From Nanobdellota archaeon (GTDB lineage: Archaea > Nanobdellota > Nanobdellia > Pacearchaeales > GW2011-AR1), in the NCBI GenBank assembly GCA_030704765.1, contig JAUYDD010000011.1, positions 1 to 35,265 on the forward strand: a stretch of 35,265 bases of DNA, given 5' to 3'. Made by a program: the position numbers and the translations under genes. Positions 15,260 through 25,800 of this stretch are shown piece after piece (position 1 is the stretch's first letter; every line of letters begins with the position of its first letter). The notes beneath the pieces were generated by a model, which did not search any database, was not told the DNA's origin, and saw only the letters and a program-made list of their open reading frames with translations.

Positions 15260-17602
15260 ATGGCTTTAAATAAGAAACAAATGTCTGAAACTGAAATATG
15301 TACTAATTTTATTACTCCTGCACTTGAAAAGTCAAGTTGGACTAAAAAGCAAGTAAGAATGAATGTATATTTTACTGATGGAAGAATAATAGTTGCAGGA
15401 AAAACTGTAAAAAGAGGAAGAAGAAACTTTGCAGATTATATTTTAGAATATAAGCCCAATGTTCCTTTAGCAGTAATAGAGGCAAAAGATAACAACTATT
15501 CTATGGGCGATGGCATGCAACAGGGTTTGGGATATGCAGAAAAACTGGATTTGCCTTTTGTTTTTAGTTCTAATGGCGATGGGTTTGTTTTTCATGACAG
15601 GGAAACAGGAAAAGAAACAAATTTGTCTTTAGATAATTTCCCCTCTCCAAAAGAATTATGGGAGAAATATAAAAAATATAAAGGAATTACAGAAAAGATT
15701 GAAGATACGGTGACATCTGATTATTTTTACGAGCCAGGATTCAAACAACCAAGATATTATCAAAGAATTGCAATTAATAGAACAATCGAAGCTGTTGCAA
15801 AAGGCATTAAAAGAGCGCTTCTTGTTATGGCGACAGGAACAGGAAAAACCTATGTAGCTTTTCAAACTATCTGGAGATTAAGAGAAGCAGGACTTGCAAA
15901 AAGAGTTTTATATCTGGCTGATAGAAATATTTTAATTGACCAACCAAAGAATAATGATCTAAAACCTTTATCTAAGGTTATAACTAAAATATCCAAAAGG
16001 AAAGCAGATCCAGCTTATGAAGTTTATCTTGCATTATATCAGGCTGTCTCAGGAGAAGAAGATATTAAAAATATCTATAAACAATTCTCTCCAGAGTTTT
16101 TTGATTTAATAATCGTTGATGAATGTCATAGGGGAAGTGCAAAAGCAGACTCTCAATGGAGAGAAATTTTAGATTACTTTAAACCAGCAGTTCAAGTTGG
16201 TATGACTGCAACTCCTAAAGAAACTAAAGATACTTCAAATATAGATTATTTTGGAAAACCTCTTTATACTTATTCATTAAGAGAAGGAATCGAAGATGGT
16301 TTTCTTGCACCCTATAAGGTTGTAAAAGTTGCAATAGATAAAGATGTTCATGGATACAGACCAAAGAAAGGAGAAACAGATAAATTTGGACATGAGATAC
16401 CTGACTTTGTTTATACAAATCGAGAGTTTGATAAAACTTTAGTCATTGATGAAAGAACAGAAGTCGTGGCTAAAAAGATTACAGAGTTCCTAAAGAATAC
16501 TGATAGATTTTCTAAAACAATTGTTTTCTGTGTAGATATTGAACATGCAGAAAGAATGAGACAAGCATTAGTGAATGAAAATTCAGATTTATACAAAGAA
16601 AATTCAAAATATATTATGAGAATTACTGGAGATAACAATATTGGTAAAAAACAGTTAGGTAATTTTATTGATCCTGCTGAAAAATATCCAGTAATTGTAA
16701 CAACTTCTAAACTGATGAACACTGGAGTTGATGCACAAACATGTAAATTGATAGTTTTAGATTCACCTATCCAATCAATGACAGAATTTAAACAAATTAT
16801 TGGAAGAGGAACAAGAATTAAAGAAGATTATGGTAAACACTATTTCACAATTATGGATTTTAGAAATGTTACAAATAAGTTTGCTGATCCTGATTTTGAC
16901 GGAGAGCCTGTTCAAATCTACACTATAAAAGATAATCAAGAAGTCAAAGAACAAGAAACAAAAGATCAAAAATTAGAAGATGGAGAAAGGATTCTCGTTT
17001 CTCCAAGTATTGCTTATTCTGAGGAAGAAGAGAAGGTAAGAAAGTTTTATGTCAGGGGTACAGAAGTTAATGTCATAAATGAAAGAGTTCAATACCATGA
17101 TCCTCAAGGAAAACTTATAACAGAATCATTGACAGACTATACTAAAAAAAATGTTAACAAAGAATTTAGAAGTTTAAATGAATTTATCCAAAAATGGAAT
17201 ATAGTTGATCAAAAGAAAGTTATTATTGAAGAGCTTGAAAATCAAGGGCTTTTAATTGATGCTTTAAGGGAAGAAATTCCTAATGGAAAAGAATTTGATC
17301 CTTTTGATTTAATTGCTCATATTGCTTATGGGCAAAAACCTTTAACAAGAAGTCAAAGAGCATTAAAGGTTCAGAAAGACGCTTACTTCAATAAATATGG
17401 AGAAAAAGCAAGAAAAGTTATTGAAGTTCTCCTAACAAAGTATGAAGATGAAGGTATAGAAGAAATGGAGAACTCAGAAATCTTAAAAGTCTCTCCTATT
17501 AACAAATTAGGAAGACCATTAGAAATAATGAAACTCTTTGGGGGAGTTGTTGGTTATAAGAAGATGATTAAAGAGATTGAAGCGAGATTATATAAAAGTT
17601 AA
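15260..17602 (+). CDS. hsdR: Type I restriction enzyme R subunit (EcoAI/EcoEI-like, COG4096-type)
   Basis: N-terminal nuclease motif ADYIL...VIEAKD. Helicase motifs MATGTGKT, DECHRG and MTATP. The C-terminus FDPFDLIAHIAYGQKPLTRSQRA resembles the EcoEI R C-terminal domain. Confidence 0.9.
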   Translation: MALNKKQMSETEICTNFITPALEKSSWTKKQVRMNVYFTDGRIIVAGKTVKRGRRNFADYILEYKPNVPLAVIEAKDNNYSMGDGMQQGLGYAEKLDLPFVFSSNGDGFVFHDRETGKETNLSLDNFPSPKELWEKYKKYKGITEKIEDTVTSDYFYEPGFKQPRYYQRIAINRTIEAVAKGIKRALLVMATGTGKTYVAFQTIWRLREAGLAKRVLYLADRNILIDQPKNNDLKPLSKVITKISKRKADPAYEVYLALYQAVSGEEDIKNIYKQFSPEFFDLIIVDECHRGSAKADSQWREILDYFKPAVQVGMTATPKETKDTSNIDYFGKPLYTYSLREGIEDGFLAPYKVVKVAIDKDVHGYRPKKGETDKFGHEIPDFVYTNREFDKTLVIDERTEVVAKKITEFLKNTDRFSKTIVFCVDIEHAERMRQALVNENSDLYKENSKYIMRITGDNNIGKKQLGNFIDPAEKYPVIVTTSKLMNTGVDAQTCKLIVLDSPIQSMTEFKQIIGRGTRIKEDYGKHYFTIMDFRNVTNKFADPDFDGEPVQIYTIKDNQEVKEQETKDQKLEDGERILVSPSIAYSEEEEKVRKFYVRGTEVNVINERVQYHDPQGKLITESLTDYTKKNVNKEFRSLNEFIQKWNIVDQKKVIIEELENQGLLIDALREEIPNGKEFDPFDLIAHIAYGQKPLTRSQRALKVQKDAYFNKYGEKARKVIEVLLTKYEDEGIEEMENSEILKVSPINKLGRPLEIMKLFGGVVGYKKMIKEIEARLYKS

Positions 17603-17611
17603 ATTGCGATT

Positions 17612-18415
17612 TTATTCTAATTTTCTTGGATTTGCCATCCCATTATACATTCTAGTATCTATGCCCTCTAAAATTGTTTCAATCTCCTGAGAGCTTAAAG
17701 CATGATATTGGGCTTTGAATTTCTGATTTACACAATCTTCTATTGTTTTATGATTTTCTATATCAAAAACAAAATTAAATAATTCAATCGGTTCTTGAGG
17801 TTCATCCAAATAATTTTTAAATACAATAGAACAATCTATTCCAAAAAACCTCTTATTATTCTTTTTCATTATTTCAATTAATTGATCAAATGTTAGAGAT
17901 CTGCCATTAGTTCCTAAGATGAATTTGCCTTCTTCATAATAAAAAAAATTAAATTTAGGTTTGAATTCTAGTGAAATTATTTCTTTGGATCTAAGTACTA
18001 TCCTATTCTTATCAGTATTCCAATTAACAAATCCATTATCAATTATTTTTTTCTTTTTTCCATCAAAATCATCTATTAATTGGGAAGGATCAAAACTAAA
18101 TGAAATAAAATCTTGTTTGCCATGTTTTTCAACATGAGGAACCGCAAGAGTAAATCTAGTTTCAAGACCTATTTGAAAAATTGATTGCTCACCAATATTT
18201 TCTAAGTCCAATTTTATATGATTTTTCTCAACTTTATATCTAATTAACTTCAAAAGTAGTGGTTTATCATGTTTTAGTCTTCTAGTTTGTTCTTTCAATA
18301 GTTTTAATTGCTCTTTACTCTGCCTTACAGTTTTATAGGTGACTCCTGCAAGAATTAATGTTCCAATTGCAGTTGCAATTTGTGATCCTATTAAAAGATT
18401 ATTTTCTAGAGTCAT
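17612..18415 (-). CDS. Hypothetical protein (267 aa) with an N-terminal TM anchor, last gene of the hsdM operon
   Basis: N-terminal helix IGSQIATAIGTLILAGVTY. ATGA start/stop overlap with the upstream gene. No recognisable catalytic motif. Confidence 0.55.
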   Translation of the reverse strand: MTLENNLLIGSQIATAIGTLILAGVTYKTVRQSKEQLKLLKEQTRRLKHDKPLLLKLIRYKVEKNHIKLDLENIGEQSIFQIGLETRFTLAVPHVEKHGKQDFISFSFDPSQLIDDFDGKKKKIIDNGFVNWNTDKNRIVLRSKEIISLEFKPKFNFFYYEEGKFILGTNGRSLTFDQLIEIMKKNNKRFFGIDCSIVFKNYLDEPQEPIELFNFVFDIENHKTIEDCVNQKFKAQYHALSSQEIETILEGIDTRMYNGMANPRKLE

Positions 18416-18981
18416 TTTAATAAGCTAAAAAACAATGGAACATATTTTAAAGCAATTCCTCCAACTTTTTTTATTAACTCTAGAGCATTTTCTCCACCTT
18501 CTTTTAAGGTATTAAATTTTTCAAGAATATCTAATAATTTCTTTTTTTTAGGTTCATCTAAATCTTCATCCTCTTCGATTAATTTTTTAAGAACATTAAT
18601 TTGGGAATTATCTATAATTTGGGATACCTGAGAATTGTCTCCAGTCTGGGCTACTTGAACTTGGGAACTATTTGTGACATTAGTTTGATTATGGATAGTT
18701 TGAGTAGCCTTTTCAGTCTCATCAAAATATTCTCTTTTACCTAAAACAACTTCCATACCCTTATGAGATAGTTTTATCTCGTCATCAGAAATATGATGTT
18801 CATTAATAAATAAGGCACTCTTCCAAAGGATATAATCCTTTTTTACTAAATATTTTAATAGTTCTCGCAAGGTTTCCCCTTTTATTAAGGAGTCTTTTTC
18901 TAACCCTTTAAAATCAATTTCTCTGATTTCATTTAAATTAGTTAATATGACTTTCCCATAATCTAAACTTTCTGCTTTCAT
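18412..18981 (-). CDS. Hypothetical protein (189 aa): YjcQ-like wHTH N-terminus, Gln/Asn/Ser-rich linker, C-terminal hydrophobic tail
   Basis: ATGA overlaps with hsdS upstream and with the 267-aa gene downstream. The N-terminal ~80 aa resemble small phage YjcQ-type wHTH proteins (from memory). The protein ends in IALKYVPLFFSLL. Confidence 0.5.
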   Translation of the reverse strand: MKAESLDYGKVILTNLNEIREIDFKGLEKDSLIKGETLRELLKYLVKKDYILWKSALFINEHHISDDEIKLSHKGMEVVLGKREYFDETEKATQTIHNQTNVTNSSQVQVAQTGDNSQVSQIIDNSQINVLKKLIEEDEDLDEPKKKKLLDILEKFNTLKEGGENALELIKKVGGIALKYVPLFFSLLK

Positions 18982-20312
18982 TTTTCAAAACTCTCCTTCA
19001 AAACAGCTACCATTAACTTCTCACTATTTCTTTGATTGTCTTTGACTTGCTTTTCCAGCTCATTACAATAACCCATTAACTTATCTACTTTTTCAACAAT
19101 TCTTTTTTGTTCGTCGATTGAAGGAAGAGGAAACTCTAAATCTATTAAATCTCCCATTTTTAAATTTGGTTGTAATCCTGCCTTACCAAATCGTGATTTA
19201 AACTTATTCAAAACATAATTAGTCCTTAAAAAGAGATATAAATAATTAAAGTCAATTTTTTCTGTTTTTTTTATACTTGCAACTCTTTGGTTTAGCAAAG
19301 ATAAATCATAACTTTCAGGGCAGATACATACTTTTAATCCTGCTGAAATATATGGACGAGTCAAAGAAATTATTATATCTCCCTTGTTTACTTTAAAATC
19401 CTCATATTTTTTTAAAAAACTTTCTGGCAAATAGTCCTCAGTCTCAATAAATTCTCCAACACCAACATTTGTTATTTTTATTGCCTTTACTCCTTTTTGA
19501 TCGTTGAAATCATAACTATCAAAACTGTTCCCTGCAAAGACTTTTACAAGCTCTCCAAGTCTCACCCATTCCCAACCCTTCGGCAAGTCATAAGGAATCT
19601 CGTCTTCGGAAATAGGTTTAAGAGGTTTTTCTTTTCTTATTTTACCTTCTTTAACGAGTTTATCTTTTCCTGCTTTAATCTTCTTTAATAATTCAGATGC
19701 AGGTTCGTCTTTCGGATCTTGCTTGACTAATTTTCCTTGAACAGCTTCCAGTAGAATTTGCTGTTTTAATTTAACAATATAATTTTTGTTTTTATTATTA
19801 ATAATATCTAATTCTGAAATATTATCTGAATTAGATTTTAGCAACTTGACAATTTCTTCTTGTTCTTTAGGTGATGGAAGAAAAATTTCTATTTCTAATA
19901 ACTGTCTTTCATGAATTGCTTTTTGTGCTGTTCCTAAAGGAACTAATTTATCTACTTCTTTTTTAAACTGTGGACTTTTTAGATAATAAATTAAATATTC
20001 TGGATTAATATTAACAATATCAAACATAGGCATATTTTCAGTAACTAAACAACCATCTACTTCTTTTGGGCATATACCTATTCCGCCATTAAAAACTCCT
20101 TGTCTAATAAAAATTAAAGTGTTTGGGTGATTTTTTAAGTCTATAATAAATTGTCTCTTTCTCCCTATCTGAGAACCATGTTTTGTTCCCCTATATGAAA
20201 CTTCACCAGTTTGTGAAATTGTTACTTGTTTGTAATTTTTATCTTCTACCCAATGAGTATTTCTATATTGATTTAGTACTTCTTTTAGTTTAACTTTTTT
20301 CCATTCAGCCAT
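18978..20312 (-). CDS. hsdS: Type I R-M specificity subunit
   Basis: Two target-recognition halves, each followed by the conserved LPS..EQ..IV motif (FLPSPKEQEEIV and PLPSIDEQKRIV), with a central coiled-coil spacer. Confidence 0.85.
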   Translation of the reverse strand: MAEWKKVKLKEVLNQYRNTHWVEDKNYKQVTISQTGEVSYRGTKHGSQIGRKRQFIIDLKNHPNTLIFIRQGVFNGGIGICPKEVDGCLVTENMPMFDIVNINPEYLIYYLKSPQFKKEVDKLVPLGTAQKAIHERQLLEIEIFLPSPKEQEEIVKLLKSNSDNISELDIINNKNKNYIVKLKQQILLEAVQGKLVKQDPKDEPASELLKKIKAGKDKLVKEGKIRKEKPLKPISEDEIPYDLPKGWEWVRLGELVKVFAGNSFDSYDFNDQKGVKAIKITNVGVGEFIETEDYLPESFLKKYEDFKVNKGDIIISLTRPYISAGLKVCICPESYDLSLLNQRVASIKKTEKIDFNYLYLFLRTNYVLNKFKSRFGKAGLQPNLKMGDLIDLEFPLPSIDEQKRIVEKVDKLMGYCNELEKQVKDNQRNSEKLMVAVLKESFEK

Positions 20313-21303
20313 TTTTAATCCTCTCTAAACGTTTTTCATGAGTCATCTTTTTAAAAGATGTTCTATTTTTTTGTAAATATTGAGGATCTTCCTTTATTTT
20401 TTTTACAATCAAATTTATTAGTTCATTAGAATAAGTATTTGAGCCTGTTGTTTTGAAGCAATAATGATATTTGCTATTACCTCTGATTTTTTCTTTATAC
20501 AGTATCGCTTGAAAATCATATTGATTAAAAATAATGTTCTTGTCGATTTGTTCTCTTGTTCTATTGATGCAATCTCCGCCTAAATAAGGATGGGTGCTAG
20601 CTGGATCTTTTGGAACTTCGATGAATATTCCTCTTGTTGTTCCCTCTTGTCCTGAAGATAAAACTATATCTGCATCTTTTGGATTCTTGACTAAAGCAAC
20701 TTTATACTCGATTGAAATGCTATACTTTTTATCTTTTAAATTTGCTGAATTATCAATAATTTCCTTTTGTTTTTGTAAAAAGAAATTTATTATTTCTTTG
20801 TTGTACTTCTTTTTTAAAATAGTTGTATTAATATCTCCTAGGTCAAAAATTAAACTTAACATTGCGGGAGAAGTCTTTTTTATAATATCTATATCAAACC
20901 ACTCCTTGAGTAGGTTAACATAATTTAAAACTCCTGCCTGAAAAAGTCCTGTGTAAATAATATCTAGTTCTTCAATAATTAAATGAGTTGCACTGTCTCT
21001 CAATTTTTCAATATCTTCTATATTCTTTCTTATAGGATCATTTTCATTTATGAATATTTTTCCAATAGAATCACGCAAACTTAAAGATCTTCTCTGGATT
21101 CCCCTACTTTTTTTGTAAAATATTGAAGAGGTATTTTTTTTATTTTCAATAATTTTAGCTTTCAGTAATAGTTCCCAAGCATTTGTAAAGAAAAAACAGA
21201 ATGATTCTATTCTATATTTTATTGTAGGTTTATTGTATATTTCTAAACTTAGTAAAAAGGCATCTTGACTTTTTATTAAAAGCCTCTTCGTTAGCTTTTT
21301 CAT
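20305..21303 (-). CDS. Hypothetical protein inserted between hsdM and hsdS (DUF3644-like, from memory)
   Basis: N-terminus SQDAFLLSLEIYNKPTIKYRIESFCFFFTNAWELLLKAKII. ATG 21303 lies 2 nt after the hsdM TGA and is preceded by GGGGAGTGGTGA. Its own stop overlaps the hsdS ATG (ATGGCTGA). Confidence 0.6.
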   Translation of the reverse strand: MKKLTKRLLIKSQDAFLLSLEIYNKPTIKYRIESFCFFFTNAWELLLKAKIIENKKNTSSIFYKKSRGIQRRSLSLRDSIGKIFINENDPIRKNIEDIEKLRDSATHLIIEELDIIYTGLFQAGVLNYVNLLKEWFDIDIIKKTSPAMLSLIFDLGDINTTILKKKYNKEIINFFLQKQKEIIDNSANLKDKKYSISIEYKVALVKNPKDADIVLSSGQEGTTRGIFIEVPKDPASTHPYLGGDCINRTREQIDKNIIFNQYDFQAILYKEKIRGNSKYHYCFKTTGSNTYSNELINLIVKKIKEDPQYLQKNRTSFKKMTHEKRLERIKNG

Positions 21304-21305
21304 CT

Positions 21306-22739
21306 TCACCACTCCCCTTTAATCTCTTTCAAAATATCACTTGTCCTCTTAATATTGACTTCAATCTTGCCTATAATTTCTTCCTTAGATAACTCCTTTT
21401 CTTCTTCGGGTTTAGTTGGATTATTTATATCTAGATTATAATTTTTCTTTTGAATGTCAGCTAAAGAAACCTTCCAACAATACTGCTTAAACTTAGGATC
21501 TTCTCTGTTATTCCACCACTCTTTCTCTAATTGGAACTCCTCGTGCCTTACTGGTTTTGTTTTGTTGTATATTTTATAACCTTCTGGCAATGGATGTTCA
21601 AAATACCAGACATCTTTAGTTCCTTTAGAGTTTTTTTCAAAAAATAAAAGATTTGTTCTTATTCCAGTATAGGGACTAAATACACCATTAGGCAATCTTA
21701 CAATAGTATGCAAATTAAACTCTGTTAGAAGTTTTTCTTTTATTCTTGTTTTGATACCTTCTCCAAATAAAAATCCGTCGGGTAAAACTAAGCCACACTT
21801 TCCTCCATCTCTTAAAAGTTTTGTAATTAAAACTAAAAACAGATCTGCTGTTTCTCTTGTTCTAAATTCTGCTGGAAAATTATTTTCTATGCCATCTTCT
21901 TCTGCTCCACCAAAAGGAGGATTAGTTACAACCACATTAACCTTATCTTTATCAGTGTAATCAATTAATGGCCGAGATAGTGAATTATCTCTCTTAATAC
22001 TAGGAACTTCTATATCATGCAGAATAAGATTAGTCATACAAAGAAGATGTGGAAGAGGCTTCTTTTCAATTCCCCTTAATGTTTTTTCTAACACCTTTTG
22101 ATCTTCAGTTGTCTTAACATTCTTTTTTAAGTGGTTTAATGTAGAAATTAAAAACCCTCCAGTTCCGCATGCAGGATCTAAAACAATATCTCCGAGCTTT
22201 GGATTAACCATATCAACTATAAACTGAGTTACAGGACGAGGAGTATAGAATTCACCAGCACTACCTGCATTCTGCAATTCTTTTAAAATTGTTTCATAAA
22301 TGTCATTAAATTGATGTCTGTCTTCAGCAGTTGTAAAATCAAGCTCATTTATCTTATTAACTACCTGTCTTACTAAGATACCATTTTTCATATAGTTGTA
22401 TGCGTCTTCAAAAACTTGTTTTATAATATAACCCCTCTGATCACTTTTCTCATCCAGTTTTAAACTTTTTAGAGTCTTAAACAAATTATTATTAACAAAA
22501 TCAAGTAGTTCTTCTCCAGTCATTCCTTCAGGATTTACTGCCCAGTTTCTCCATCTTATTTTTTCGGGCAAGGGAGACTTATATTTATCATCTTCTGCTT
22601 CTCTTTCTTCTTCCATTGCATCAAAAACTTTTAAGAATATCATCCAAACCATTTGAGAAATTCTTTGAGCATCACCATCTACACCTGCGTCTTTTCTCAT
22701 TATGTCTCTTACAGATTTTATTATATTGCTTAAGGTCAT
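21306..22739 (-). CDS. hsdM: Type I R-M N6-adenine DNA methyltransferase subunit
   Basis: Motif I VLDPACGTGGFL and motif IV VVTNPPFGG, plus an HsdM N-terminal-type helix bundle. I prefer ATG 22739 (GAGGA lies 6 nt upstream) over the TTG at 22751 used by the track. Confidence 0.9.
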   Translation of the reverse strand: MTLSNIIKSVRDIMRKDAGVDGDAQRISQMVWMIFLKVFDAMEEEREAEDDKYKSPLPEKIRWRNWAVNPEGMTGEELLDFVNNNLFKTLKSLKLDEKSDQRGYIIKQVFEDAYNYMKNGILVRQVVNKINELDFTTAEDRHQFNDIYETILKELQNAGSAGEFYTPRPVTQFIVDMVNPKLGDIVLDPACGTGGFLISTLNHLKKNVKTTEDQKVLEKTLRGIEKKPLPHLLCMTNLILHDIEVPSIKRDNSLSRPLIDYTDKDKVNVVVTNPPFGGAEEDGIENNFPAEFRTRETADLFLVLITKLLRDGGKCGLVLPDGFLFGEGIKTRIKEKLLTEFNLHTIVRLPNGVFSPYTGIRTNLLFFEKNSKGTKDVWYFEHPLPEGYKIYNKTKPVRHEEFQLEKEWWNNREDPKFKQYCWKVSLADIQKKNYNLDINNPTKPEEEKELSKEEIIGKIEVNIKRTSDILKEIKGEW

Positions 22740-22790
22740 CTTTTTCCTCAAGTTTCCTAATAAATCCTACTATAAAAAGACTGCTCTAAT

Positions 22791-22840
22791 AAAAAGTCAC
22801 TTCTATTTTACATGCTTATTATTGTTGGTGACTTTTTTTT
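22791..22840. terminator. Hairpin plus T-tracts between the VirB4-like stop and the hsdM promoter region
   Basis: AAAAAGTCAC (22791-22800) pairs with GTGACTTTTT (22829-22838). T-runs follow on both strands. A third copy of GTGACTTTTT lies at 22894-22903, at the coding end of the VirB4-like gene. Confidence 0.35.
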
Positions 22841-22889
22841 ATTTTAAGGCTATTTTATATTATATAAACTAGATAAAATAGCTAAAAAG

Positions 22890-25800
22890 CTAAGTGACTT
22901 TTTTACTGTTTTTTATAAGCTTTCTTAAAATATTGAATAGATACCTTGATTCAGTCGTTTTACCTAGCTTAGAATATTTTGAAGCAATTTTTCTATCAGT
23001 TACAACAAAAAACCAGTTATTTTCATACTCTTTATTTAATCCATTTATCTTTTCTAATAAAAGTTTCTTATGATGTGTTAATGCTATTCCTGTTTCAACT
23101 TCAATTGCATATTTTTTCTTATTTATTTCAAAAACTAAATCCGGTTTTACAGTTTGATAGATTTCAACTTTAATTTTATTCTTTTCCAAAAATCTTTTTA
23201 TATCCTGAACTAAAAAGAAATGAGGAATTCCTTCATTTGATCTTGGTCTTAAAATATATTTTTCTTTTTTGTTTGATAAAATACTTTTATGCTCTGAGAT
23301 TTTATATCCTAATTTTAACAAATAATCCCTTTCATCTTTGCTTATATTATTGTATTTGAAAAAACCAATACTAGTATCTACATTAATTGTAATATTTTTT
23401 CCATTCTTAACTATTGTAGGTTTTGATTTTTCTTTATCTTTATCTAGATTTAATTCATCAGGATTAGTTGTAATTAGCTTATGTTCTTCAGGGGATGCAA
23501 TAACTTTTATTTTACTATGATCGTCTTCCATAATTAAAAGTCCTTCTCCAACAGCAGCTGTTAAAAGATGCTGTCTTTCAGACTGGCTTAGATTAAAAGT
23601 CTTGCAGATATTATCAATTACCGCTGGCTTTTGCCTCATTAACATTGTATAGGCTGAATTTGCTAGAATTGATTTTCCTGCTTGACTTGCAAACAATCCT
23701 TCAACTTCCTGATTAATTAAAAGTAAGCCCATGTTGAATTTTCTACAAGTCTTAACTATCTCAAAGATATAACCAGCGTCTTCTGTTCTTGAAAGTAATG
23801 ACCATGATTCGTCAATCAAAAGAAGTTTTCTATCTAAATTAGACCTCATTTTCATATAAACATAATCCAAAACTAAAAACATAATTGCAGGCTTTACTTG
23901 TTTTGGCAAATTTCCAATATCAAAACAAACAAACCGATTATCAAAATCAATGTTTGTATGTTTATTCATAAAACTAAAAACTCCATCAACATACATCTCG
24001 AGTCTATTAGTTAGGCTTTGTAATGTTGGTCTTTCTATTTGTACTGCTTTCTTTTCCATAGCCCTTAGAACTTTCAGTAAATCTCCTAATATTGGGGGAG
24101 TATTGTTCCAGGTACTAGGGTCTTTATTTATGCCTTTATCTTTATAGGCTTGAGAAATTGCCTTATCAATTATAGATTTTTGAGGATCTGTTAATTTTCC
24201 TAGCATTACTTGCATTAAATCCATCAAAGCAAGTCTTTTTTCAGCATAATCATGCCCCATTAAATCAAATGGATTAATCATTGTATCAGAATCTCTTGAA
24301 AGGTCTATTCTTTGACCATTGAACTTATCAACTAAACCCCTATACTCTCCTTGTGGATCAATAACCATAACCTTTGTTCCATTAAGTAAATATCTTGTAA
24401 TAAGTAGCTTGCAAAAATAAGACTTTCCTCCTCCAGATTGTGCCAGAACAAGCCCATTTGGGTTTGGGAGCTTGAAAATGTCTTTTATTATAGGGATGTT
24501 GTTCTTATTTAGTCCCAACCAAATTCCACTATTATCAACTTGTAAAAATTGACTCGTAAATGGAAAGAAAGCTGAAAGAGCATCTGTTGTAATGTTTCTA
24601 TTAATATTTAATTCATCAACCCCCAAGGGAGCTGTAGCCTTAAATCCTTGAAGCATTCTTAATCTAGCTGTTCTTGGAAGAATCATTAGACTATTTAATT
24701 CAGATTCTATTTTTTTAGTAAGTAAATCCAGTTCTTTTATTGAATCTGCTTTGCAATTAATGTATAAGCTTACATTAAACAGCCTTTCTTCTCCTTTTTG
24801 TAAGTTTTCTAAAGTCCCTCTTGTATCTTGATATTGAATTTCTAAAGAAGGATTAAATATGCCTTTCATTTTCATAGCATAGAGATCTGCCTGTTGTTTT
24901 TGAAGTTCTCTTGTTAAATCTACAAGCATATTTTCTATAGGATAGGGTTTGATATAAATGCTTAAATCAAAATCTGCGAGAGAACTAACAATTTTATCTA
25001 AAAATCCGGGTTCAACATTTCTAGGATAACCATTTGCATAAATTGTTCTATAAAATTTCTGATTAACCTTTATTTTTCTCCCTTCTTTTGACTTTTTATC
25101 CTCTTCTAAATTATAAATTTCTAAATGATCTGAGTTATTTTCTATATTTTCAGGAGACATTGCATCCCTTATATCTTTTCCTTTGCCATCTCCTGAAAAA
25201 TGATTTATTAAAAGTTTTTTTAATTCTATTGAATTAAGCCGGTCTACTTTCATATTTAATGCATGCAATCTTTCAATACAAATTTCAGTTTGAATTTCAA
25301 TATCTCCGGATTCAGGGATAATAATATAGAAAACTCTGTTCATTATCTTTTTTGTTGAAATCACATCTTCGAGATGTTTTTTATAGCTCTCAAAAATATT
25401 CATGAAATTTTCATCTTGTATCTTTGATTTAAGAGTATCTAGATAACTATCGAGCTTTATGCTTTCGGTTTTCATTAAAATCTGAGTTGGAAAATCCAGA
25501 GAGTTAAGAAACCTTTGAAATGAAAACATAATAGCTTCTCTTTCATTCTTTGGCTTTATGCTAAAATTAATAGGCTGAATTTTTAAAACAGAAACTTTTT
25601 TATTGTTTGATAAAACTATAAGATCTTTATCTATATCTTTAACTCCTATGAATTTTTTAAGTTTATAATCTCCTTTGGATAATTTTCTATATTTTAAATA
25701 AATCCTATAATTTTTAATTAATGTGTCAAGATTTAGAAACATAAAACATATCCCTAGTCCTGAGGATAAAAACATGAGTGTAAATTTTATGTAACTATTG

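Follow-up and report, generated by a model that had tools for sequence, protein, structure and literature searches.

In a DPANN archaeon, a mobile element of conjugative type carries a type IB restriction-modification (R-M) system whose hsdM–hsdS unit probably acts as a landing pad on which three passenger genes, unrelated to one another and here called X, Y and Z, have settled. The system lies in a 35,265-nucleotide stretch of DNA from a Nanobdellota archaeon (assembly GCA_030704765.1, contig JAUYDD010000011.1, positions 1–35,265), hereafter called the window, and the operon studied occupies positions 17612–22739. A list of open reading frames, together with a direct reading of the strand, places hsdM, X, hsdS, Y and Z consecutively on the minus strand, with hsdR convergent to them, as follows.

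22739..21306, minus strand: hsdM, 477 amino acids, type I N6-adenine DNA methyltransferase subunit (Pfam HsdM_N and N6_Mtase, 7.8e-75; PADLOC MTase_I, 2e-208).
21303..20305, minus strand: X, 332 amino acids, a DUF3644 HEPN domain with a C-terminal EC042_2821 restriction endonuclease (REase)-like domain.
20312..18978, minus strand: hsdS, 444 amino acids, type I specificity subunit with two target-recognition domains (Pfam Methylase_S in two stretches; PADLOC Specificity_I, 1.3e-79).
18981..18412, minus strand: Y, 189 amino acids, a predicted winged helix, a Q/N/S-rich segment and a helical C-terminal module (C-module).
18415..17612, minus strand: Z, 267 amino acids, with a predicted N-terminal transmembrane anchor.
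15260..17602, plus strand: hsdR, 780 amino acids, EcoAI-family (type IB) restriction subunit (Pfam ResIII and EcoEI_R_C; PADLOC REase_I, E = 0).

All five genes of the operon overlap or abut, as a preliminary description of this DNA had stated. Specifically, the junctions read TGA-AG-ATG between hsdM and X, ATGGCTGA between X and hsdS, and ATGA both between hsdS and Y and between Y and Z; the same description's placement of a convergent hsdR, whose stop codon lies 9 nucleotides from that of Z, is confirmed as well. Purine runs resembling Shine–Dalgarno (SD) sequences precede the ATG codons of hsdM, X, hsdS and Y. No SD sequence is seen near the ATG of Z, and translation of this gene probably therefore proceeds via the ATGA overlap with Y. 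An hsdS–Y overlap of 4 nucleotides is found in 10 of the 11 type I loci that carry Y, and an hsdS–Z overlap also occurs in L006 and L047 (L numbers denote the loci compared with the window). Because these overlaps recur across loci, the coupling of the extra genes to hsd genes, which had been proposed from the window, exceeds chance. Since the passengers are translationally coupled at gene junctions, they would be expressed from the hsd promoter.

The R-M system is predicted to be complete and of the EcoAI/type IB family. A search of NCBIfam assigns HsdR to the EcoAI/FtnUII equivalog NF046051 with E = 0 and 1150.7 bits against a cut-off of 550, over profile positions 1–768 of 768. A gene for a VirB4/TraG-like ATPase (Pfam) lies directly upstream of hsdM and is conserved in L001, and the homologues of the window's genes assign the window, whose guanine-plus-cytosine (GC) content is about 29% throughout, to a mobile element of the conjugation type from a DPANN archaeon. 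The window's HsdS is 30–44% identical to HsdS of most related loci (L070, at 68%, is the exception), where HsdM and HsdR are 55–98% identical, and this divergence reflects the usual swapping of specificity alleles.

Comparison with related loci reveals that X, Y and Z come and go independently. The closest relative of the locus, L001/L002, encodes proteins with amino acid identities of 98% (HsdM), 97% (HsdR), 94% (Z) and 90% (VirB4), and has the order hsdM, hsdS, Y, a gene of 170 amino acids and Z, facing hsdR, without X. DNA alignment and inspection of the junctions reveal that, relative to L001, X is an exact insertion or deletion (indel) that falls after the hsdM stop codon and leaves the start of hsdS unaltered. 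Indeed, the reading frame of X closes only at a TGA within hsdS codons 2 and 3 (ATGGCTGA, 20305–20312), X itself providing no stop, and L001, which lacks X, has the identical hsdS start, ATGGCTGAATGGAAAA. The 170-amino-acid gene of L001 (6531–7043) is likewise an exact indel, of 512 nucleotides, placed between the stop codon of Y and the start codon of Z. The window and L001 carry exchanged versions of hsdS (42% amino acid identity) and of the 5′ portion of Y, within flanks of about 92% DNA identity. Such a history would have each passenger acquired at an exact gene junction, one at a time.

The same independence is apparent further afield. At least 14 loci have Y but no Z, and Z occurs without Y in L006 (hsdS, Z, genes of 228 and 725 amino acids, then convergent hsdR) and in L047 (hsdS, Z, PIN_3). 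Furthermore, L030 (1175–4427) and L047 (441–3979) have a common backbone made of hsdS, a PIN_3 protein (54% identical) and a divergent ArsR-type winged helix-turn-helix (wHTH) protein (62% identical), wherein the slot behind hsdS holds Y in L030 and Z in L047. X was not found in any other Y or Z locus examined.

These distributions bear directly on an earlier proposal that X, Y and Z constitute one R-M-linked abortive-infection or sensor-effector module, here spelled out with Y as sensor, X as effector and Z as membrane partner. The three genes are translationally chained in the window, and each is enriched beside R-M genes, an association that locus surveys uphold as non-random. L001 keeps Y and Z, with the 170-amino-acid gene in X's stead, and this gene carries an Rx4H-like motif, RNKVAH, such that a HEPN-like gene with Y and Z could be a recurring trio. 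Going by the motif, the gene may encode a minimal HEPN protein; Pfam and PADLOC return no match for it, and BLAST gives no similarity to the HEPN protein of L017. Against a single module stand the absence of X from the other loci, the separate occurrence of Y and of Z, and their interchange on one backbone, along with the fact that homologues of X act as single genes elsewhere and that PDC-S is a single-gene class. The proposal is largely refuted by this distribution of genes, and we consider it very improbable. Thus, tight translational coupling need not imply one functional module.

The two junctions that hold passengers in the window are occupied by other genes in sister loci. The slot between hsdM and hsdS contains DUF3800, NYN, an M48-like fragment or pairs of small membrane proteins, and the slot behind hsdS contains GmrSD_N together with a RiboL-PSP HEPN gene, PIN_3 and many genes of no recognized family. 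Counting both slots, roughly half of the passengers have predicted transmembrane segments (L067–L079, L006–L009, L017, L019, L023, L024 and L030). The locus is a further example of a known pattern, wherein genes are embedded in defence operons such as type I R-M, BREX, DISARM and Hma (Payne et al., bioRxiv 10.1101/2024.01.29.577857). As in that pattern, the extra genes lie at type I operon junctions, one of them (X) matches the catalogued candidate PDC-S19, and the passengers of the sister loci are of nuclease or defence type (HEPN, NYN, GmrSD_N, PIN and DUF3800). The differences are that Y and Z match no model, that the host is a DPANN archaeon, and that passengers are also appended after hsdS rather than only inserted between hsdM and hsdS. 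Embedded genes of this kind are the richest current source of new immune functions, and defence in DPANN archaea is poorly charted; this DPANN type IB lineage would represent a cassette platform with two sockets.

The likeness of X to DUF3644, proposed in the preliminary description, is borne out by a Pfam match (PF12358, 3.1e-48, 164.2 bits against a gathering score of 27.6). The C terminus of X matches the EC042_2821 REase-like domain (PF18740, 3.4e-11, 44.0 bits against 24.9), and the protein also matches PHROGs family phrog_9605 (3.1e-83) and the PADLOC candidate PDC-S19 (2.8e-95; model PDLC04952, residues 1–313 of 332 aligned with profile positions 1–320 of 328). The HEPN motif is intact, with RDSATH at residues 102–107 conforming to Rx4H. 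X shares its DUF3644 HEPN domain with an intact Rx4H motif, its REase-like C-terminal domain and its location in an R-M operon with the EC042_2821/DUF3644 HEPN family, which has been reported in R-M operons (Anantharaman et al. 2013, PMC3710099), and the PDC catalogue was compiled from genes nested within type I R-M, BREX and DISARM loci (Payne et al.). The family of X is therefore not uncharacterized, contrary to the first description; its profile matches identify X as an already catalogued single-gene candidate rather than a new family, and as an archaeal example of PDC-S19.

DUF3644 is found in 3 of 401 genomes of the phylum, namely in the X of the window and in two others, and in all three it lies beside hsdM-like genes. 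The DUF3644 HEPN protein HEC-08 provides phage defence that depends on the motif histidine (bioRxiv 10.1101/2024.01.29.577857), although its C terminus is zinc-finger-like, unlike that of X, which is EC042_2821 REase-like and gives no zinc-ribbon match in Pfam. Anti-plasmid Ishtar proteins carry DUF3644 or DUF4145 HEPN domains (2026 preprint, bioRxiv 10.64898/2026.07.06.735840). We regard it as reasonably likely that X would act as a stand-alone abortive-infection RNase working through its Rx4H site.

Y belongs to an undescribed two-module family, wherein a swappable winged helix is joined to a constant C-terminal module. Across 20 distinct loci, the C-module (about residues 105–189) is 64–97% identical in alignment, and the N-terminal winged helix is of three types, with 20–28% identity to the type found in the window. 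No match to Y exists in Pfam (E ≤ 0.01), NCBIfam or PADLOC, and PHROGs returns phrog_21028 at 1e-6. All 49 homologues come from DPANN-type metagenomes or metagenome-assembled genomes (MAGs). About 1% of the phylum's genomes contain Y, and a second, class-level genome sample gave no further Y loci. Searches of phage and plasmid collections found no relatives of Y or Z, and IMG/VR yielded no relative of Y.

An AlphaFold2 model of Y has a predicted local distance difference test score (pLDDT) of 71.5 and comprises a winged helix (residues 3–80), a low-confidence segment (88–124) and four C-terminal helices. The Q/N/S-rich segment (about 95–125) is conserved despite this low model confidence, with Q112, G114, I119, Q121 and N125 invariant or nearly so, and the conserved helical module at residues 121–187 ends in KYVPLFFSLLK. 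Fold searches give weak hits to PadR, VanR, LmrR and AspA (E 0.027–0.15, TM-score 0.28–0.36), some of which are full-length and PadR-like, and searches of the PDB and BFVD return only generic winged-helix matches. The modelled fold is thus best described, if weakly, as a generic winged helix of the PadR/MarR type. The likeness to YjcQ given in the preliminary description finds no Pfam match at E ≤ 0.01. A sequence profile search of the PDB gives weak MarR hits and, over residues 112–152, matches to designed armadillo repeats (4rv1 and 4hxt), which may be compositional or may mean that the segment is a helical repeat.

The hydrophobic tail of Y had been taken to place the protein at the membrane. 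However, its Kyte–Doolittle maximum over 19 residues is 1.25, which is below transmembrane grade, and a tail-anchored membrane protein is rejected on hydropathy.

The genomic context of Y was tallied over the 20 distinct loci, where ‘behind’ means at most one gene away. In 16 of these, Y lies behind a gene carrying an adenine-methylase specificity domain, whether of a type I, type IIG or methylase-helicase system, and the loci divide as follows.

Directly behind hsdS: 11 loci, with the 4-nucleotide overlap in 10 of them.
Behind type IIG enzymes: L026 and L029.
Behind an Eco57I-type methylase with a TaqI_C domain: L012.
Inside a system of a large methylase and a PLD-SNF2 helicase: L018 and L032.
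Without an adjacent methylase: L003, L005, L015 and L031.

In L018 (632–11119) and L032 (479–9997), an Eco57I/MmeI-type methylase and a PLD-SNF2 helicase (‘HKD+Snf2’ in PADLOC, DrmD-like) flank a cargo consisting of Y, a gene of 164 or 185 amino acids, a helix-turn-helix (HTH) M78 peptidase and DUF4411. An M78-peptidase/DUF4411 pair also follows Y in L031. L003 looks like the relic of an R-M locus, because it keeps a homologue of the gene that lies between Y and hsdR in L009. In L015 (JAJFLV010000025.1, GC content 35%), a Y homologue 63% identical to that of the window lies beside a tyrosine integrase; this contig is labelled as an Opitutales bacterium MAG and probably stems from mis-binning of DPANN or mobile-element DNA.

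The dependence of Y on R-M genes is one-sided, in that the R-M lineage is mostly without Y. In an unbiased sample, the HsdM lineage of the window is found in 16 of 391 genomes of the phylum (about 4%), and within these 16 genomes Y is present in two (that of the window and G108) and Z in one. As a class, R-M systems are reported to be under-represented in DPANN archaea (PMC12988326).

What Y does can be proposed with less assurance. Tentatively, it would bind DNA by its winged helix and self-associate or dock by its C-module, and thereby control the R-M system that it trails, as a PadR-like regulator would, or serve as its adaptor. In its size of 189 amino acids and its modelled arrangement of an N-terminal winged helix and a C-terminal helical domain, Y resembles PadR regulators of subfamily 1, although it has no sequence match to PadR models. 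Like the C proteins of type II R-M systems, it is a small protein of DNA-binding type that is co-expressed with R-M genes. C proteins have an Xre-type HTH, are encoded upstream of or overlapping the R gene, and recognize a palindromic C-box operator. In contrast, Y is a predicted winged-helix protein with no sequence match to Xre-type C proteins, its gene lies behind the specificity gene rather than ahead of the nuclease gene, and no operator shared across seven loci is found.

Another explanation is that Y guards its R-M system in the manner of PrrC, as an R-M-dependent defence protein. By analogy, Y would be silenced by the co-translated methylase/specificity module; on inhibition of that module, or on detection of foreign DNA by the variable winged helix, the C-module would assemble and either harm the cell or block the invader. 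The near confinement of Y to positions behind methylase/specificity genes of three R-M types (16 of 20 loci) is what such a guard would exhibit, and conflict systems typically join a variable sensor-like domain to a module that stays constant. Likewise, the Q/N/S-rich segment is conserved though modelled as disordered, as might be expected for a region that becomes ordered on assembly. The guard reading is also favoured by a protein of 244 amino acids in L012 (1501–2235, equivalent to 8327–9061 in L044), where a winged helix of the window's Y type (55% identity) is joined to a PIN-like domain in place of the C-module. This gene lies behind the Eco57I-type methylase and ahead of an HTH-Peptidase_M78 gene and a DUF4411 gene. 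However, its Pfam PIN match, at E 0.02, is below threshold; Y itself has no recognizable toxic or enzymatic domain and a tail that is not transmembrane, and it is kept in the four loci without an adjacent methylase. On balance, we judge the guard role possible but on the unlikely side.

PrrC and RloC are proteins that combine an ABC ATPase with a HEPN anticodon nuclease. The frame of accessory genes in hsd operons, set by PrrC in the EcoprrI locus, RloC and the rlo genes of Campylobacter, was the right one to apply here, and Y, as PrrC, is almost confined to that setting. Unlike PrrC and RloC, none of X, Y and Z has an ATPase or PrrC match in Pfam, PADLOC or NCBIfam. Y occupies a position nearly as exclusive to R-M systems as that of PrrC, yet has no recognizable effector domain. 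A broader formulation would make Y a new R-M-dependent accessory family defined by its C-module (QVAQ-TGDNS...KFNTLKESGENA...KYVPLFF) and interchangeable winged-helix sensors, attached by a 4-nucleotide overlap 3′ of the target-recognition gene in type I, type IIG and methylase-PLD/SNF2 systems. Its members would either stand guard in the manner of PrrC or connect the modification module to a conserved host machine, with Z as an alternative plug-in for the same socket. In this full form the proposal is rather doubtful; were Y to control or guard the methylases of all three R-M types, it would constitute a novel class of R-M accessory.

A role for Y as the antitoxin of its downstream gene was considered and rejected, because no pairing is constant while the C-module of Y is. 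The gene downstream of Y may be Z, the 170-amino-acid gene, PIN_3, the 164-amino-acid gene or GmrSD_N, or may be absent (L022, L008 and L009).

The region directly upstream of hsdM contains possible regulatory sites, as follows.

22740..22902, minus strand: hsdM upstream region, with A/T-rich TATA-like boxes, an SD-like GAGGA ahead of the ATG and three copies of AAAAGTCAC.

Two copies of AAAAGTCAC (22902..22894 and 22836..22828) are in the sense orientation and one (22792..22800) is inverted. Within the 35-kb window the sequence is confined to this region, with three copies seen against 0.49 expected, and 0 of 100 shuffles reach three. These copies are possible operator sites. At the same place, L001 has a different repeat, AAAAGTGCCAGT, in two copies and L024 has an 18-nucleotide direct repeat; the upstream repeats may be operators, or they may be terminator elements of the upstream VirB4 operon. 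L001 differs from the window both in this repeat and in the winged helix of its Y, an observation that, with two loci, constitutes a lead rather than evidence.

Z belongs to an undescribed family, is predicted to be membrane-anchored and, in DPANN archaea, shares the slot behind hsdS with Y. It has no match in Pfam, NCBIfam or PADLOC, PHROGs yields no informative hit, and a profile search of the PDB was also without result. The N-terminal anchor noted in the preliminary description is upheld, with residues 7–27 of transmembrane grade (hydropathy 1.89). A basic helix follows the anchor, and then beta-rich and alpha/beta regions; because basic residues follow the N-terminal helix, the bulk of Z is predicted by the positive-inside rule to be cytoplasmic. 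An exhaustive phmmer search gives a family of 82 cluster representatives of similar length (E < 1e-3), wherein near-invariant positions are few and do not look catalytic. An AlphaFold2 model built from four sequences has a pLDDT of 44 and is unusable. Z is found behind hsdS with a 4-nucleotide overlap in three DPANN lineages (first, the window and L001; second, L006; third, L047), and could plausibly, if still tentatively, act independently in defence or exclusion while tethered to the membrane. Several passengers of the sister loci resemble Z in having one predicted anchor, at the N terminus, for example L067 (4054–4482) and L070 (7472–8071).

Several observations weigh against the picture in which the hsd unit hosts a defence RNase (X), a controller or adaptor (Y) and a membrane-tethered factor (Z). 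Homologues of X on bacterial plasmids mostly stand alone, and only once lie beside a DUF262 gene and a methylase, so being embedded need not mean being functionally coupled. Y is able to persist alone, since four loci (L003, L005, L015 and L031) have it without an adjacent methylase. It also follows fused type IIG enzymes, for which delaying restriction makes little sense; moreover, Y has no enzymatic domain and matches known folds only weakly (best E 0.027). Direct binding of Y to the methylase is disfavoured because the C-module is highly conserved while the partners are highly diverged. Furthermore, a comparison of seven loci found no operator shared upstream of hsdM, in that no k-mer is common to four or more of them. 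Finally, four distant relatives of Z (20–26% identity, GC content about 50%) are solitary and lie away from R-M genes, with transposases, a TrwB-like gene and a zeta-toxin-like kinase gene as neighbours.

A different explanation is that Y and Z would have no part in defence and would instead serve to maintain or regulate the mobile element, simply using the hsd promoter. For example, Y could be a PadR/AspA-like DNA-binding or partition-type protein, and Z a membrane protein of the entry-exclusion type. The locus lies on a conjugation-type element whose VirB4/TraG-like gene upstream is conserved in L001, the Y of L015 lies beside a tyrosine integrase, the fold hits of Y include the plasmid centromere-binding protein AspA, and distant relatives of Z occur among transposases and beside a TrwB-like gene. 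However, Y trails methylase/specificity genes in loci that have no conjugation genes in the examined flanks, and does so across three R-M types, and most family-matched passengers of the same slots are associated with nucleases or defence (HEPN, NYN, GmrSD_N, PIN and DUF3800). We consider the mobile-element explanation distinctly unlikely, and the landing-pad reading, with its separate passengers, remains the one that we favour.

The assembly from which the window derives (G000) measures 1.71 Mb in 244 contigs, and genomes of the same genus measure 0.7–1.2 Mb, with Y in none of the four sampled. The G000 bin may be composite, or the element may be newly acquired.

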